Shown here piece after piece: positions 6,619 to 37,654 of a DNA stretch of 37,654 bases (its first letter is position 1; the number at the start of each line of letters is the position of its first letter). The position numbers were made by a program, and so were the translations under genes. Location: the IMG/VR virus record IMGVR_UViG_2529292719_000024; one strand, given 5' to 3'. Source of the DNA: a virus (Duplodnaviria; Heunggongvirae; Uroviricota; Caudoviricetes). The notes under the pieces are model-generated. The model was not told where the DNA came from. It was given only the letters and a program-made list of their open reading frames with translations, and did not search any database.

Positions 6619-6672
6619 GGGGGCAGTATTGCCCCCGTGCGGGAACGCTGATATTAAAGGCGTTTAAAAAGC

Positions 6673-24302: not shown

Positions 24303-24628
24303 TATTGACCTCCGGTATTGCGGTACTGCTGTACCACTTCCAGTTTGTTATAAAGCGCGTCCAGTTTGGCCTCAATGACTGTCTGGCCACGGATATAATC
24401 CTCTCGACGGACATAATTCAGCGGTAAATCCGCTTTAAATCGCATAAATTCTTTTTCCAGCTCGCCCCAGTTGGAGGCGGATTGTTGCAGGGCCTGTTCA
24501 AGGGAGGCGAATCGTGCCGCCTGGCGTTCTTCTGTTTTACTGAACAACCATTTGGCGAGCCCTCCCACAAACCCCATGAAGGTGAGCAGAAAACTCACCA
24601 CCGTCCAGAATTCAACCTGCAGTGTCAT
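24302..24628 (-). CDS. membrane-anchored coiled-coil protein (lysis-associated?)
   Basis: 108 aa; N-terminal hydrophobic segment WTVVSFLLTFMGFVGGLAKWLF then coiled coil; directly downstream of the spanin gene. Confidence 0.45.
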   Translation of the reverse strand: MTLQVEFWTVVSFLLTFMGFVGGLAKWLFSKTEERQAARFASLEQALQQSASNWGELEKEFMRFKADLPLNYVRREDYIRGQTVIEAKLDALYNKLEVVQQYRNTGGQ

Positions 24629-26001: not shown

Positions 26002-26352
26002 TTAAAGCCCCATCGCAACAGCCAGGCAGACCGCTGCAACAATCAGTGCACGGCGGATTAACGCAGCAGAAAACACCAGGTGAAGGCCGGTCTGTACCGG
26101 GAAACGCCCTTCAGCCATCAGCCTGTCGTCATGTTTCAGGTACTGACCGGGACGGGCTTTGGGGAAGAGCGAACGGTCAAGCCAGTAACCCAGCACTGCT
26201 GCCAGCGTGATGAGTGCCAGCTTGTAGATCACAACAGGCAGCTGCTGTGGTGAGACCAGAGCGATGGTGCCCAGCAACAGCACTGAGGTCAGCAGCCAGC
26301 CGCTGAGGCGAGGTTTTTTAACAGGGGGAATGAATTTTTTCAGGTTTTTCAT
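26002..26352 (-). CDS. putative holin / small three-helix membrane protein
   Basis: Start refined to MKNLKKF (GAGGA upstream); three hydrophobic helices; directly upstream of the endolysin gene with 3 bp between. Confidence 0.4.
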   Translation of the reverse strand: MKNLKKFIPPVKKPRLSGWLLTSVLLLGTIALVSPQQLPVVIYKLALITLAAVLGYWLDRSLFPKARPGQYLKHDDRLMAEGRFPVQTGLHLVFSAALIRRALIVAAVCLAVAMGL

Positions 26353-26482
26353 GTGTGTATCCTCGTTTGGTGGAGACAGCATCACAAATACAGGGCGCAA
26401 AGGATTTTAAAGCGCGTTAAGAGAGCCGGGGATACGGGATGTGCAGGATAAACGATGAATTATTCACAGAGGAGAATACGAT
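26353..26482. promoter_or_regulatory. divergent intergenic region: candidate late-operon promoter and promoter of the P-loop gene
   Basis: 130-bp non-coding gap between divergently oriented genes; no consensus sigma-70 hexamers could be assigned confidently. Confidence 0.3.
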
Positions 26483-26959
26483 ATGACGCACACACTGAAT
26501 CCGGTCATCACTGTCACTGTGTCCGGTCCTGTGGGCAGCGGTAAAAGTTACGTACTGGCGCGGATAGAAGAGATGGTGAAACAGGAACTCGGAAACAGCG
26601 TCATTGTCGATGCTGCTGACGTGGAGAATGAGCGCCGTATGAATGGCGAAGATCTGACGACCTGGCAGAAGCCACGGGGTGGCACAGTGATCAGGCTAGA
26701 GGAATACACGGGACAGGGCCTGTTGTCATACGGCGAGGAGCGTATCTGTCGGACGAATGAGCTGCTGGATGTTATATGCCCCACGGGCCGGCAACCCTGG
26801 ATACTGCCCGATGCACTGCATGCCACCATTGCGGCACTGATGACAGTTTACGATCAGGAGCTGCTCATGAAGGAGTTACGTAAACTCACCGGTCAGCCAA
26901 CAGAATGTTGTTCGTCTCCGAAGTACGGCAAACAGGAAAACGCCCCGGATAATCCTTAA
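26483..26959 (+). CDS. small P-loop NTPase / kinase-like protein, uncharacterised
   Basis: 158 aa; Walker A motif VSGPVGSGKSYVL at residues 13-25; GAGGAG ribosome-binding site 8 nt upstream of the ATG; oriented against all neighbouring phage genes. Confidence 0.6.
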   Translation: MTHTLNPVITVTVSGPVGSGKSYVLARIEEMVKQELGNSVIVDAADVENERRMNGEDLTTWQKPRGGTVIRLEEYTGQGLLSYGEERICRTNELLDVICPTGRQPWILPDALHATIAALMTVYDQELLMKELRKLTGQPTECCSSPKYGKQENAPDNP

Positions 26960-26974
26960 GATACCTCCTGAACA

Positions 26975-27000
26975 GAAACAGCCCTGAAGGGCTGCACTAA
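26975..27000. terminator. bidirectional hairpin terminator between convergent genes
   Basis: Perfect stem-loop CAGCCC-TGAA-GGGCTG (26979-26994); on the minus-strand transcript it is followed by UUUCUGUUC; it sits between the P-loop gene stop (26959) and the minus-strand gene stop (26997). Confidence 0.5.
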
Positions 27001-27587
27001 AAAAAGAAGTGTATTATTGCCCAAACAGCTATAACGATGATTCCCAGCCCAAGAGCCGATTCTAACTTATCTTTGGCAGTCATTTTTACTGTTGTAGCGG
27101 GCGCAGGTAAGTCTTGCTGCTGTGGATTTTCTGTTAGTTGTTTACGAGAAGAAACATCGCCCCTATTAGTTTGCTTCATGTTGATTACAGATGCGTTATG
27201 GGCATTATCAGCAGCAATTGACTGAAGTTTTACAAAAGTTTTTGAATCTGTTTTAGCCAGAAGTAACCTATTTCCCGTAAACATTGCCTTAAAAGTGATA
27301 GTTTTTTTCGTCTTGTCCGCCGCACCAAGCAAACCTCCAATGACCAACCCTGCACCACCAAAGATTAATCCACCAAGCAACCCTGCGCCTGCCGCCTTAC
27401 CTATACGGCTTTCCTCTTCACTATCCGCAAGTTCAATCGATAAAAGCTCTTCTTTCAGATTTAATACAATATTTTCAGGAAAGCCTTGTTTTGGTTTTTT
27501 GGCAAACACGATGGTACCGAACCCCATGCTTGCCCACCCTTTAGGAAAACTTCCTGCGATAACCTGAATCCCTGCCATGTTCATCAC
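26997..27587 (-). CDS. glycine-zipper membrane protein, uncharacterised
   Basis: 196 aa; central glycine-zipper segment AAGAGLLGGLIFGGAGLVIGGLLGAA and C-terminal helix LGLGIIVIAVWAIIHFFF; low-GC coding sequence. Confidence 0.6.
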   Translation of the reverse strand: MMNMAGIQVIAGSFPKGWASMGFGTIVFAKKPKQGFPENIVLNLKEELLSIELADSEEESRIGKAAGAGLLGGLIFGGAGLVIGGLLGAADKTKKTITFKAMFTGNRLLLAKTDSKTFVKLQSIAADNAHNASVINMKQTNRGDVSSRKQLTENPQQQDLPAPATTVKMTAKDKLESALGLGIIVIAVWAIIHFFF

Positions 27588-27668: not shown

Positions 27669-28655
27669 CTATTTAAGAATAAAACGGTATTTACTGTCAG
27701 GAGTGCTTTGCTGATCAAGTAGCAGTGAACGACATGGAGCAGTCAAAACCCGAGCATAACTACCATCAGGGCTTATGTTAATGTAACAAACCTTGCCCTT
27801 AACACTATAATTTTCGGGGACGGATGCCTTTGCTGATACAGTAAATTTAAGGGTATGCCAGCCCGTTTTTTGCTTGTAGCTTGAAACCGAATGGAAATCA
27901 TCTGAGTACTTATTTAACCCTGGAAACATGCTGCGCAGTGCGGGGATGGAATCTTCTATTATTTTATCGTTGGTTTTAATGTTAAAAACGCTGGTTTCAG
28001 TAGAAGCTACTGCTTTGGCATTTCCCCATTTACCAGCGAACACAATCATTCCCACGAAAAATATTGCTACAAGAACTAACACTCCCCCCAACACTACTAC
28101 ATGAGGCTTCCGGCTTCTGGTTGGTACAGTTGCGACTGATTTTGCACCGCTTTCCGATGGAGGTGATAGAGTTTTACTCTCATCACGAATATTCAGCAGA
28201 TCATCAAAATAACCAAACACAGCCTGCAACTGCTCTTTGTCTAGGCCTTTAAGATGGGTTGTACCGAAATGCTTCAGACAGTATCTGTCACGGTCAAGAC
28301 GATACCCAGGGTCAGTAAGCGCCATTATTTTGCTGACCAGAAGATTACAGTCCTTCATATTCTGGATCTGTTGTGCATATCTCTGAAGGATCTCAACCGC
28401 ACCATGATAATCAGCCGCAGTCATTTCATTAACTGTTTTGGTATTAAGTTTCGTGTGGATCGTCATCCATAGCTCGCGCTTACTTTCCCCCAGATCAACC
28501 AATTCATCCATCAATCTGTGTAAATCGCGTTTTTGCAGCAACGAAATTGGTTGCTGGGCCGAAGGAAGTATGTCAGCAGAATAGTTATGAATGGTAACAT
28601 CACCGCTGACAACGTTACCCACATCCCCGTTAACTGTTTGCTTCTCTTTACTCAT
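27669..28655 (-). CDS. single-pass membrane protein with a cytoplasmic N-domain and an extracytoplasmic C-domain, uncharacterised
   Basis: 328 aa; start overlaps the repressor stop (ATGA); one transmembrane helix PHVVVLGGVLVLVAIFFVGMIVFAG; N-terminus MSKEKQTVNGDVGNVVSGDVTIHNY mirrors the repressor C-terminus. Confidence 0.65.
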   Translation of the reverse strand: MSKEKQTVNGDVGNVVSGDVTIHNYSADILPSAQQPISLLQKRDLHRLMDELVDLGESKRELWMTIHTKLNTKTVNEMTAADYHGAVEILQRYAQQIQNMKDCNLLVSKIMALTDPGYRLDRDRYCLKHFGTTHLKGLDKEQLQAVFGYFDDLLNIRDESKTLSPPSESGAKSVATVPTRSRKPHVVVLGGVLVLVAIFFVGMIVFAGKWGNAKAVASTETSVFNIKTNDKIIEDSIPALRSMFPGLNKYSDDFHSVSSYKQKTGWHTLKFTVSAKASVPENYSVKGKVCYINISPDGSYARVLTAPCRSLLLDQQSTPDSKYRFILK

Positions 28656-29113
28656 CTTCTCTTGGTATTTTTGTTCATTATTCCACCTGTTCCTATGGTT
28701 ACGTTACCTTTGATAACATTCCCCAGAACATCTCCATGAATAACCTGTTCCGCCCGTTCTCTGGAGGAGCCAGTAGTCAAGGCCGACAAAACTGAACCTT
28801 TGACCTGTAATGGTGCCTGCCGGTAGTGCTGCAGTAACTCCATTTCATCACGTGATAAAGTTATACCTGATGACTCCCCGGTAAGAATGAACTGTACATT
28901 GGCCCCAATTCTTGCAAAGGCTGCAAGTAACTCACCTCCGGGAACAGCAACCCCTCGTTCATATTTCCCCCACATTTCTCTTGAAACGCCACAAAGGGCT
29001 GCTACTTCAGCCTGCTTGAGTGATAACCGCGAACGCTCAGCTTTGAACCGCGACGCGCAAAGAGAATCAAAATTCACATAAACCTCATTGACAATGAGAA
29101 CAATAGTTCTCAT
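28652..29113 (-). CDS. prophage repressor, XRE-type HTH without a LexA-like peptidase domain
   Basis: 153 aa; HTH LKQAEVAALCGVSREMWGKYERG; divergent from the early operon across a 50-bp gap; C-terminus ends HGDVLGNVIKGNVTIGTGG. Confidence 0.8.
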   Translation of the reverse strand: MRTIVLIVNEVYVNFDSLCASRFKAERSRLSLKQAEVAALCGVSREMWGKYERGVAVPGGELLAAFARIGANVQFILTGESSGITLSRDEMELLQHYRQAPLQVKGSVLSALTTGSSRERAEQVIHGDVLGNVIKGNVTIGTGGIMNKNTKRR

Positions 29114-36627: not shown

Positions 36628-37069
36628 ACAACGTCTTATCCAGCTCATTCATATTGCCCGTAATGAACTGGGTATGGATGAAGACACCTACCGCCAGATG
36701 TTACAGGGGCTGACCGGTAAAGCCTCAACCAAAGGAATGGATACCACACAACTAAACTGCGTGCTGGAATCCATGAAAAGGAAAGGCTTTCGCGTTAAGC
36801 CTGCCGGAAAAGCCAGCTCCGGTTTACCGCTGGATAACCATCCGCAGTCCAGGAAAATCCGTGCGCTATGGCTTGAAATGGCTGCTGCCGGCATTGTTCG
36901 TGACCGTTCAGAAAATGCATTAGCGCGGTGGATCAAGCGGGAAACGGGCATCAGCGCCCTGCGCTGGCTCAATACTGAACAGGCAAGCAGTGTTATTGAG
37001 AAACTGAAGAAGTGGCAGCACAGAGCTGCGGGAGTAAAACATGAGCGACCTGAATCAGTTTCGAAGTAA
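36617..37069 (+). CDS. GemA-like protein (Mu gp16 family)
   Basis: Start refined to MMTKQRLIQLIHIARNELGMDEDTYRQML (AAAGGAG upstream); position just before the Mor-like gene as in Mu. Confidence 0.65.
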   Translation: MMTKQRLIQLIHIARNELGMDEDTYRQMLQGLTGKASTKGMDTTQLNCVLESMKRKGFRVKPAGKASSGLPLDNHPQSRKIRALWLEMAAAGIVRDRSENALARWIKRETGISALRWLNTEQASSVIEKLKKWQHRAAGVKHERPESVSK

Positions 37070-37241
37070 AGGGCCGGAACTCCTGGTGGAACTGGCACAG
37101 CATACCTCTGAGACCGTTCGCGAGATTATTGATATTGAGCCCGCAATTGCCGACCAGATTGGTCAGGCCGTCGCGAACCGCATGATGCAGGTCTGGGGCG
37201 GGCAAAACGTTTATTTCCCGATGGGCATGGTATGGAAGTAA
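37041..37241 (+). pseudogene. Mor/C-family transcription activator, C-terminally truncated by IS66 insertion
   Basis: 66-aa ORF; LLVELAQ...VWGGQNVYFP resembles the Mor N-terminal region (recalled HLGGGQVYIP); the C-terminal DNA-binding part is missing, and the stop codon TAA is formed by the first bases of the IS end (aaG TAA GCG). Confidence 0.65.
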
Positions 37242-37654
37242 GCGACTCGTCAGAACCGTATTGATATTTACTGAGAGCTCAGATCAACTTTCCAGGGCAA
37301 CAGATCGCGTACCCGGTTTGCCGGCCAGTCCTGGATATGTTCAATGACGTAACGCAGCCACTTTTCTGACTCCACATTGTTCAGACGGCATGTGCCGATC
37401 AGCGAGTACAACACCGCCGCATGTTCACCACCGCTGTCGGAACCCGCGAACATCCAGTTTTTCCGGCCTACGGCCACTCCCCGTAAGGCGTTCTCTGCGA
37501 TGTTGTTGTCGATTTCCACCCAGCCATTACTGCAGTACACGTTCAGTGCATCCCACTGTTTCAGCAGGTATGCGAACGCTTTTGCCGTATCTGAGTGACG
37601 CGACAGTGTTTTCATCTGTTGCTGTATCCAGTCATACAGTGACTGCATCAGTGG
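37238..37654 (-). mobile_element. IS66-family insertion sequence, terminal 0.4 kb (continues beyond window)
   Basis: Terminal sequence GTAAGCGACTCGTCAGAACCG at 37238, then an ORF whose C-terminus matches the IS66 TnpC pattern ([26 protein letters not shown]...LPWKVDL). Confidence 0.75.
37268..37654 (-). CDS. IS66-family transposase (TnpC-like), C-terminal part; 5' end outside window
   Basis: 126-aa C-terminal translation with recalled IS66 transposase motifs; the frame is open to the window edge. Confidence 0.75.

Follow-up and report, generated by a model that had tools for sequence, protein, structure and literature searches.

The question raised by this locus is what a small protein with a nucleotide-binding signature is doing between the lysis genes and the immunity genes of a prophage, on the strand opposite to both of its neighbors. 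The window (the whole 37,654-nucleotide stretch of DNA analyzed, IMG/VR record IMGVR_UViG_2529292719_000024) holds a BcepMu-like transposable prophage, for which the nearest phage record is Escherichia phage PhiKM, classified in Bcepmuvirus. An earlier note, made from the sequence alone, had described a 158-aa open reading frame (N terminus, MTHTLNPVITVTVSGPVGSGKSYVLARIEE) as an orphan with a Walker A motif (GPVGSGKS), a strong ribosome-binding site, and opposed orientation, and had suggested a small nucleotide or sugar kinase, a kinase-type toxin, or a third component of the neighboring membrane module. The features were all present as described. Here, we report that the frame is a genuine phage accessory gene under selection, that it is no orphan and has no link to its membrane-protein neighbors, and that it is, with a probability of about 0.55, the short architecture of a mosaic accessory family, phrog_3787, occupying the first slot of the variable region that runs from the repressor to the late promoter.

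The late (lysis) operon and the immunity region are separated by a variable region, in which the gene lies (Table 1), flanked on either side by a minus-strand gene. On one side, the holin gene heads a minus-strand run that continues with an SLT transglycosylase gene, further lysis-region genes, and Mu-type head genes. Located 3' of the 158-aa gene, on the same minus strand, are the genes for the 196-aa, then the 328-aa, and then the 153-aa helix-turn-helix (HTH) protein, beyond which lies the plus-strand early operon, encoding Ner-like, IclR-type HTH, DUF3102, and rve transposase proteins, followed by an AAA_22/ExeA-type protein (at the usual position of the transposition ATPase), Gam, and GemA.

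Three observations concern these neighbors. The 328-aa gene and the stop of the HTH repressor gene share 4 nt, and the pair travels together in two other loci (L044 and L045). The N-terminal 130 aa of the 328-aa protein resemble the flagellar regulator Flk (NF007987, E 2.9e-12), and a 197-aa Flk_N-like protein was found at its place in L048; the 328-aa protein looks like a repressor-linked, lysogen-expressed membrane protein. At the far end of the early operon, a Mor-family activator gene 3' of GemA (37041-37241) is cut to 66 codons in the window and is followed by an IS66-family (ISCro1-like) transposase fragment (37268-37648); CE10, IAI39, and other genomes with the prophage match the window only as far as the break in the Mor gene. 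Because of this shortening, the prophage copy in the window may be unable to switch on its middle and late genes.

Table 1. Features of the 158-aa gene, its control region, and its neighbors, in window coordinates.
Feature	Position	Strand	Remark
Holin gene (Holin_2-3), upstream neighbor	26002-26352	minus	Pfam E 1.6e-41
Divergent control region, 130 bp	26353..26482	.	between holin/late operon and 158-aa gene
Imperfect dyad TTTAAAGCGCGTTAA	26406..26420	.	kept in nine of nine aligned loci, including L044, which lacks the gene
Conserved block GCAGGATAAA	26443..26452	+	from intergenic alignment; includes GCAGGAT, 26443-26449
Shine-Dalgarno GAGGAG	26469..26474	+	8 nt 5' of ATG; GGAG/GGA kept in intergenic alignment
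CDS, 158 aa, ATG start	26483..26959	+	RefSeq WP_000149906.1; member of phrog_3787
N-terminal 'mini P-loop' domain, ~75-80 aa	26483..26722	+	sole part common to remote homologues
Walker A codons (GPVGSGKS, residues 15-22)	26525..26548	+	G20 and K21 kept in all 36 aligned N-terminal domains
Second module, residues ~85-146, predicted helical	26735..26920	+	recurs at C terminus of other proteins with the N-terminal domain
Short tail ..NAPDNP and stop codon	26939..26959	+	specific to the 158-aa allele type
Terminator-like GC-rich hairpin and T run of convergent repressor/membrane-gene operon	26978..26995	-	19 nt past stop of 158-aa gene
196-aa hydrophobic membrane protein gene, downstream neighbor	26997-27587	minus	
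328-aa membrane protein gene	27669-28655	-	
153-aa HTH_31/HTH_3 repressor gene	28652-29113	-	

The sole strong match of the protein was phrog_3787 (E 2.1e-107, 359 bits; residues 1-157 on profile positions 1-157 of 242), which is annotated as 'unknown function' and was also the only PHROG matched by remote stand-alone homologues. A tblastn search of 50,697 phage records returned PhiKM as the only match, its 242-aa protein (XRL29432.1) being 92% identical over residues 1-157. The gene was present in 583 of 5,426 complete E. coli genomes, about one in nine, within BcepMu-like prophages and with ST131 genomes included. For synteny, reference proteins were mapped onto 43 loci (29 of them from IMG/VR, found via the N-terminal domain, here the N-domain) and two further loci, and the contexts of the remaining loci were read from gene tables. 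In all BcepMu-like loci but L044, the gene next to the holin gene and divergent from it encodes an N-domain protein (so in L001-L004, L012, L015-L038, and L045-L049), and this slot was kept at 32 to 57% domain identity (L012, L035, L037, and L038; 32% in L012). WP_000149906.1, WP_000194951.1, and XRL29432.1 of PhiKM all belong to phrog_3787 and share the holin-side position. A family of this size, whose position next to the holin is kept down to 32% identity, is no orphan. Literature searched on the accessions, the PHROG identifier, and ST131 Mu-like prophages contained no mention of the gene or the family.

The divergent control region contained no sigma-70 consensus promoter (26353..26482), and three blocks in it were conserved when nine diverged loci were aligned. 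The left edge of the variable region falls directly after the dyad, which is a candidate activator (Mor-type) site. Within the conserved block on the plus strand, GATAAA (26447-26452) is a possible -10 element of an activator-dependent promoter for the 158-aa gene; were it so, the dyad would be centered at about -45 of that promoter. A site near -45 is the promoter geometry used by Mor and C of Mu. Relatives of this prophage encode an intact Mor-family activator. Given the geometry of the dyad and the intact Mor-family gene of relatives, activator-dependent expression in lytic growth, rather than in the lysogen, is considered the likeliest pattern.

Further features of the window relate to this control region. 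Matches resembling the dyad (TTTAAAGsGCdTTA, ≤2 mismatches) numbered 8, against 0.65 expected by chance, at four places (26406-26421, 1648-1671, 6655-6668, and 24426-24447), with that at 6655-6668 sitting in a 54-bp gap between minus-strand open reading frames (ORFs); all four places are candidates for activator sites of late transcription units. The third conserved block is an inverted repeat over the holin Shine-Dalgarno sequence (26362-26382; GTCTCC-N8-GGAGAC in relatives, with GTATCC in the window), which may fold into an RNA hairpin that regulates translation of the holin. A holin with dual starts, as in lambda S, was considered because of a conserved CAGCAT upstream and was rejected, since the upstream ATG is in frame in the window and out of frame in L004.

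The shared control region bears on one alternative, namely, that the gene encodes a lysis-linked cytoplasmic regulator or helper of the holin/transglycosylase/spanin cassette, co-regulated through the region that it shares with the holin gene. Its divergence from the holin gene and the conserved dyad common to both fit this reading, as do two remote homologues. The start of a stand-alone homologue in a Yersinia prophage (L005) overlaps the stop codon of a LysC-domain (PF23793) gene, downstream of a holin gene and ahead of HNH and terminase genes, and another protein (P0088) carries the N-domain fused to PG_binding_1, a domain typical of endolysins. Other homologues, however, lie between HNH and small-terminase genes (L007, L008, L050, and L051, in Acinetobacter and other prophages), near an integrase gene (L010), or in early-type clusters, and L044-type prophages retain the whole lysis cassette while the N-domain gene is absent. 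The end of the lysis cassette is commonly reported as an insertion spot for accessory genes, and for that reason adjacency to the holin gene is by itself weak evidence. We consider a dedicated lysis function improbable.

Two more homologues were found amid small ORFs and methylase genes (L052) and on a 79-kb phage-like contig encoding an NAD-type DNA ligase (L053). The latter contig also encodes, about 4.4 kb from the N-domain gene, an Acb2/Tad1-type hairpin-domain protein (L053:180-596), the domain being named for anti-defense proteins.

The 158-aa length, taken in the earlier note as pointing to a kinase, is one of several architectures. Forms of 141, 158, 182, and 242/247 aa were found at the slot, the 242/247-aa form being the majority (PhiKM, ST131, and others), and an 88-aa stand-alone protein and fusions of ~140, 291, and 300 aa share only the N-domain with the other forms. 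Relatives of the 158-aa form are 83 to 87% identical to that of the window and have the same ..PDNP tail, and the 141-aa form ends in ..KATEK. The 182-aa form (L004; P0028 and P0030) is without residues 51-86 and 96-124 and keeps both the frame and the C-terminal domain; in these variants, the middle of the protein seems dispensable, or else the alleles are inactive. Deletion between short repeats was considered for the 182-aa gaps and dropped, as the alignment gave it no clear support. In a DNA alignment, the window and the 242/247-aa alleles are homologous only as far as ~26938-26950, six codons short of the window stop, and the window copy has its own 6-residue tail in place of their ~90-aa C-terminal domain.

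Such a breakpoint could also be left by decay, with the gene a functionless, 3'-truncated pseudogene of the 242/247-aa gene after cassette replacement. The longer form is the majority one, homology to it ends at codon ~153, and the PHROG profile is covered over only part of its length, all of which agree with a remnant. Against decay, the ribosome-binding site and start are intact, and a second 158-aa allele (L046; 91.5% nucleotide identity) has the tail, the stop, and ~19 nt beyond in common with the window and is followed by a different cassette (a 126-aa ORF, Dam, a 175-aa ORF, and another repressor), so that the 158-aa form is no accident of membrane-gene insertion. Between alleles, dN/dS (Nei-Gojobori) was 0.2 to 0.4 in both halves of the gene, and it was 0.28 between the two independent 158-aa alleles, which are 83% identical, have the conserved ..PDNP tail, and lie in different cassettes; the gene has therefore been kept by purifying selection in its short form. 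In addition, the same helical module forms the natural end of the 141-aa forms and of several remote homologues. A decaying remnant is thus a quite improbable explanation.

The preferred reading, a mosaic accessory family, draws on the way in which the C-terminal parts are shared. Window residues ~85-140 reappear at the C terminus of P0034, P0036, P0057, and P0062 and of the 141-aa forms, and the C-terminal domain of the 247-aa form is similar, by eye, to the C-terminal regions of P0038, P0042, and P0047. Some C-terminal modules recur in different combinations across N-domain proteins. In L044, where homology to the window ends at 26419, another plus-strand ORF fills the slot (L044:3160-3394, in E. 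coli 503025 and ~27 other genomes; MTEPKQSG..KTYTLSLDAC..NVMLIGDVAATS). It is unannotated in RefSeq and resembles, by eye, the C-terminal module of the N-domain proteins P0041, P0058, and P0060; given that likeness, C-terminal modules would also exist as separate genes.

The two membrane genes and the 153-aa repressor gene accompany only the window-type allele, being found with it in 97 genomes and in L002 and L015-L020. The 97 genomes carry an identical 3.3-kb stretch with the 158-aa gene beside the two membrane genes, and this adjacency speaks for reading the protein as a third component of a system with the two membrane proteins and the HTH repressor, for example, a defense or exclusion module. 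This idea is largely refuted by synteny. In ~480 genomes, a phrog_3787-type gene occurs without the two-gene membrane module and with other cassettes; the cassette after the 242/247-aa forms consists of a 134-aa ORF, a 71-aa ORF, Dam, and a 118-aa repressor. The divergent 158-aa allele of L046 has the same tail ahead of its own cassette, in L045 the 328-aa gene and its repressor gene stand with a 247-aa form and no intact 196-aa gene, the 141-aa form of L048 and L049 is joined to still other cassettes, and L044-type prophages (~27 genomes, including strain B7A) hold the 328-aa gene and the 153-aa repressor gene, with no N-domain gene in that prophage. The gene is, moreover, convergent with the membrane operon, whose terminator lies in between, and PADLOC gave no match for the protein and no significant match for the neighboring membrane genes. 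Membership in such a module is very unlikely.

One trace of exchange was seen beside the intact 328-aa gene of L045, where a 32-codon remnant of the 196-aa membrane gene (L045:3993-4088, 94% identical) is the scar of a cassette exchange within the accessory region. The locus as a whole provides a map of an exchangeable accessory region of E. coli BcepMu-like prophages, bounded by the conserved dyad on one side and the repressor on the other, which is useful for finding lysogenic-conversion or defense cargo there.

The part of the protein common to the whole family is its N-domain. When its profile was run against 1.84 billion representative proteins, 66 sequences were recovered; outside the E. 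coli group, only the first ~75 residues are common to the homologues, followed by unrelated C-terminal regions in proteins of 125 to 364 aa or standing alone as a 70- to 90-aa protein, the stand-alone copies being carried by unrelated phages. Across 36 diverse N-domains (~30 to 50% identity), G20 and K21 were the only invariant residues, with G15 in 35 and S/T22 in 34, so the Walker A motif is genuine and conserved rather than a chance match; a few members have GAESSGKN or GAENAGKN as the loop. Also strongly conserved were I28, G37, [DE]46 (30/36), E50 (31/36), W61 (30/36), P64, and E74 (30/36). A candidate Walker B residue, D43, follows the strand VIV and was found in 14/36, with the better-conserved [DE]46 three positions on.

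An AlphaFold2 (AF2) model of the N-domain alone (pLDDT 84.9, pTM 0.72) had no significant neighbor among solved structures, and structure search returned no kinase or NTPase fold. The predicted order is strand, GxxGxGK[ST] loop, helix, strand, a loop with [DE]46/E50/W61/P64, and a strand ending at E74, the strand assignment being taken from a low-confidence AF2 model of the full-length 247-aa form (pLDDT 46, shallow family alignment). Neither family models nor fold comparison recognized a full alpha/beta core (at least 5 strands, ~150 aa or more), and no lid or substrate-binding region was recognized in any family or structure search. The N-domain appears to keep the strand/P-loop/helix core of P-loop NTPases without the rest of the fold.

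Searches of Pfam, NCBIfam, and PADLOC with the 158-aa and 247-aa forms gave only matches below threshold, all within residues ~4-60 around the Walker A motif. These were AAA_30 (17.9 bits; cut-off, 27) in Pfam, ABC_tran (PF00005; 13.6 bits; cut-off, 25; residues 4-49 only), Zeta_toxin (PF06414; 12.6 bits; cut-off, 22.3; residues 11-47), and, in NCBIfam, guanylate/uridine kinase equivalogs (12 to 13 bits, E 0.05 to 0.07; cut-offs, 180 to 263) and ABC equivalogs (11 to 15 bits; cut-offs, 266 to 875). The best PADLOC model was SngB (E 0.007, 13 bits, Walker A region only), and SngB, HerA, and PtuA spanned E 0.007 to 0.06. When ten remote homologues were searched against Pfam, the N-domain fell in no family, and the sole real domain was the PG_binding_1 of P0088; the second module matched nothing below E 0.1 among PDB sequences. 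In a profile scan of genome contigs, generic VSGPxGSGK matches predominated, and of the two loci obtained, L014 (345 aa, PilT/type II secretion-type ATPase in appearance, apparently complete) was set aside as a false positive.

A canonical small P-loop kinase (nucleotide or sugar) or a zeta-like kinase toxin, to which the Walker A motif, a size of ~160 aa, and weak matches to guanylate, uridine, and thymidylate kinase and Zeta_toxin models pointed, is most improbable, the matches being sub-threshold and at the Walker A motif only, the domain a mere ~75 aa with no lid or kinase fold recognized, and no conserved small partner gene having been seen across the loci. Of the two outcomes named in the earlier note as counting against its proposals, lack of co-occurrence with the membrane genes was thus found, and assignment to a housekeeping kinase family was not. 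The identical RefSeq protein is named 'ABC transporter ATPase', and fragments of relatives are labeled 'KAP family NTPase' or 'P-loop NTPase fold protein', with 'hypothetical protein' also in use; the names 'ABC transporter ATPase' and 'KAP family NTPase' gained no support from any search in this analysis and should not be spread further.

The protein comprises a ~75-aa N-terminal mini-domain and a ~55-aa module predicted to be helical, with other alleles adding, replacing, or dropping C-terminal modules. As a guess, we favor a small accessory protein that binds phosphate or nucleotides and is probably oligomeric. In the mechanism that we propose, the N-domain would bind a phosphate-bearing ligand (NTP or nucleic acid) via the invariant G-K-[ST] loop, near which the conserved acidic residues [DE]46, E50, and E74 would lie; self-association of the N-domain would probably be needed to complete the sheet; and the exchangeable C-terminal modules would steer the protein to different partners, as would be expected of a factor in phage-host or phage-phage conflict. 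The gene would probably be transcribed in lytic growth and not in the lysogen, with an activator-dependent promoter lying in the 130 bp that separate it from the divergent holin gene. Taken as a whole (ligand binding, self-association, module targeting, and lytic expression), this mechanism is tentative, and we put the odds against it. If the mini-domain does bind nucleotides, it would be an unusually small natural P-loop unit, with a bearing on the origin of the commonest nucleotide-binding fold, and a compact module for protein engineering.

Among known phages, the same architecture of a variable region between repressor and holin is found in the Burkholderia transposable phages KS10 and BcepMu: KS10 gp10-gp13 and BcepMu gp17-gp22 run from the repressor through hypothetical genes to the holin and SLT lysin (PMC2628397). 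All repressor-to-holin genes in the KS10 gene table are on the strand of the repressor (PMC2628397), and KS10 therefore has no counterpart of the plus-strand 158-aa gene.

Among known proteins, the likeness to P-loop NTPases consists of GxxGxGK[ST] between a hydrophobic strand and an amphipathic helix, with a short strand after it. The strand/Walker A/helix/strand region of ABC ATPases matched the N-domain profile (ABC-B transporters in the PDB, E ~3e-5 over 36 residues); in contrast to ABC ATPases, reading of the 158-aa sequence recognized no LSGGQ-type signature, Q-loop, Walker B, or H-loop, and the N-domain has ~75 aa against ~200 aa for an ABC ATPase domain. The only PDB sequence similarity spanning nearly the whole N-domain was to 9jix, the de novo P-loop ATPase PL2x4_2 (query positions 8-68/73; E 2e-4 with alignment A4 and 0.02 with A2), and 6c2u, a designed 'phosphate-loop protein', matched at positions 11-46 only. 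Both are artificial constructs, as small as the N-domain is, and their similarity to it, by sequence profile, is marginal. Prototypes of the 6c2u type bind nucleotides and nucleic acids as oligomers. The N-domain (~70 to 80 aa) might itself occur in nature as a free-standing, minimal strand/P-loop/helix/strand unit for which homo-oligomerization is required before NTP or nucleic acid is bound, and which phages use as a portable phosphate-binding handle fused to interchangeable target-recognition modules, a speculative reading that we regard as unlikely. If true, it would make this family the living counterpart of P-loop prototypes, whether designed or ancestral, and would add a new class to the small proteins of phage conflict.
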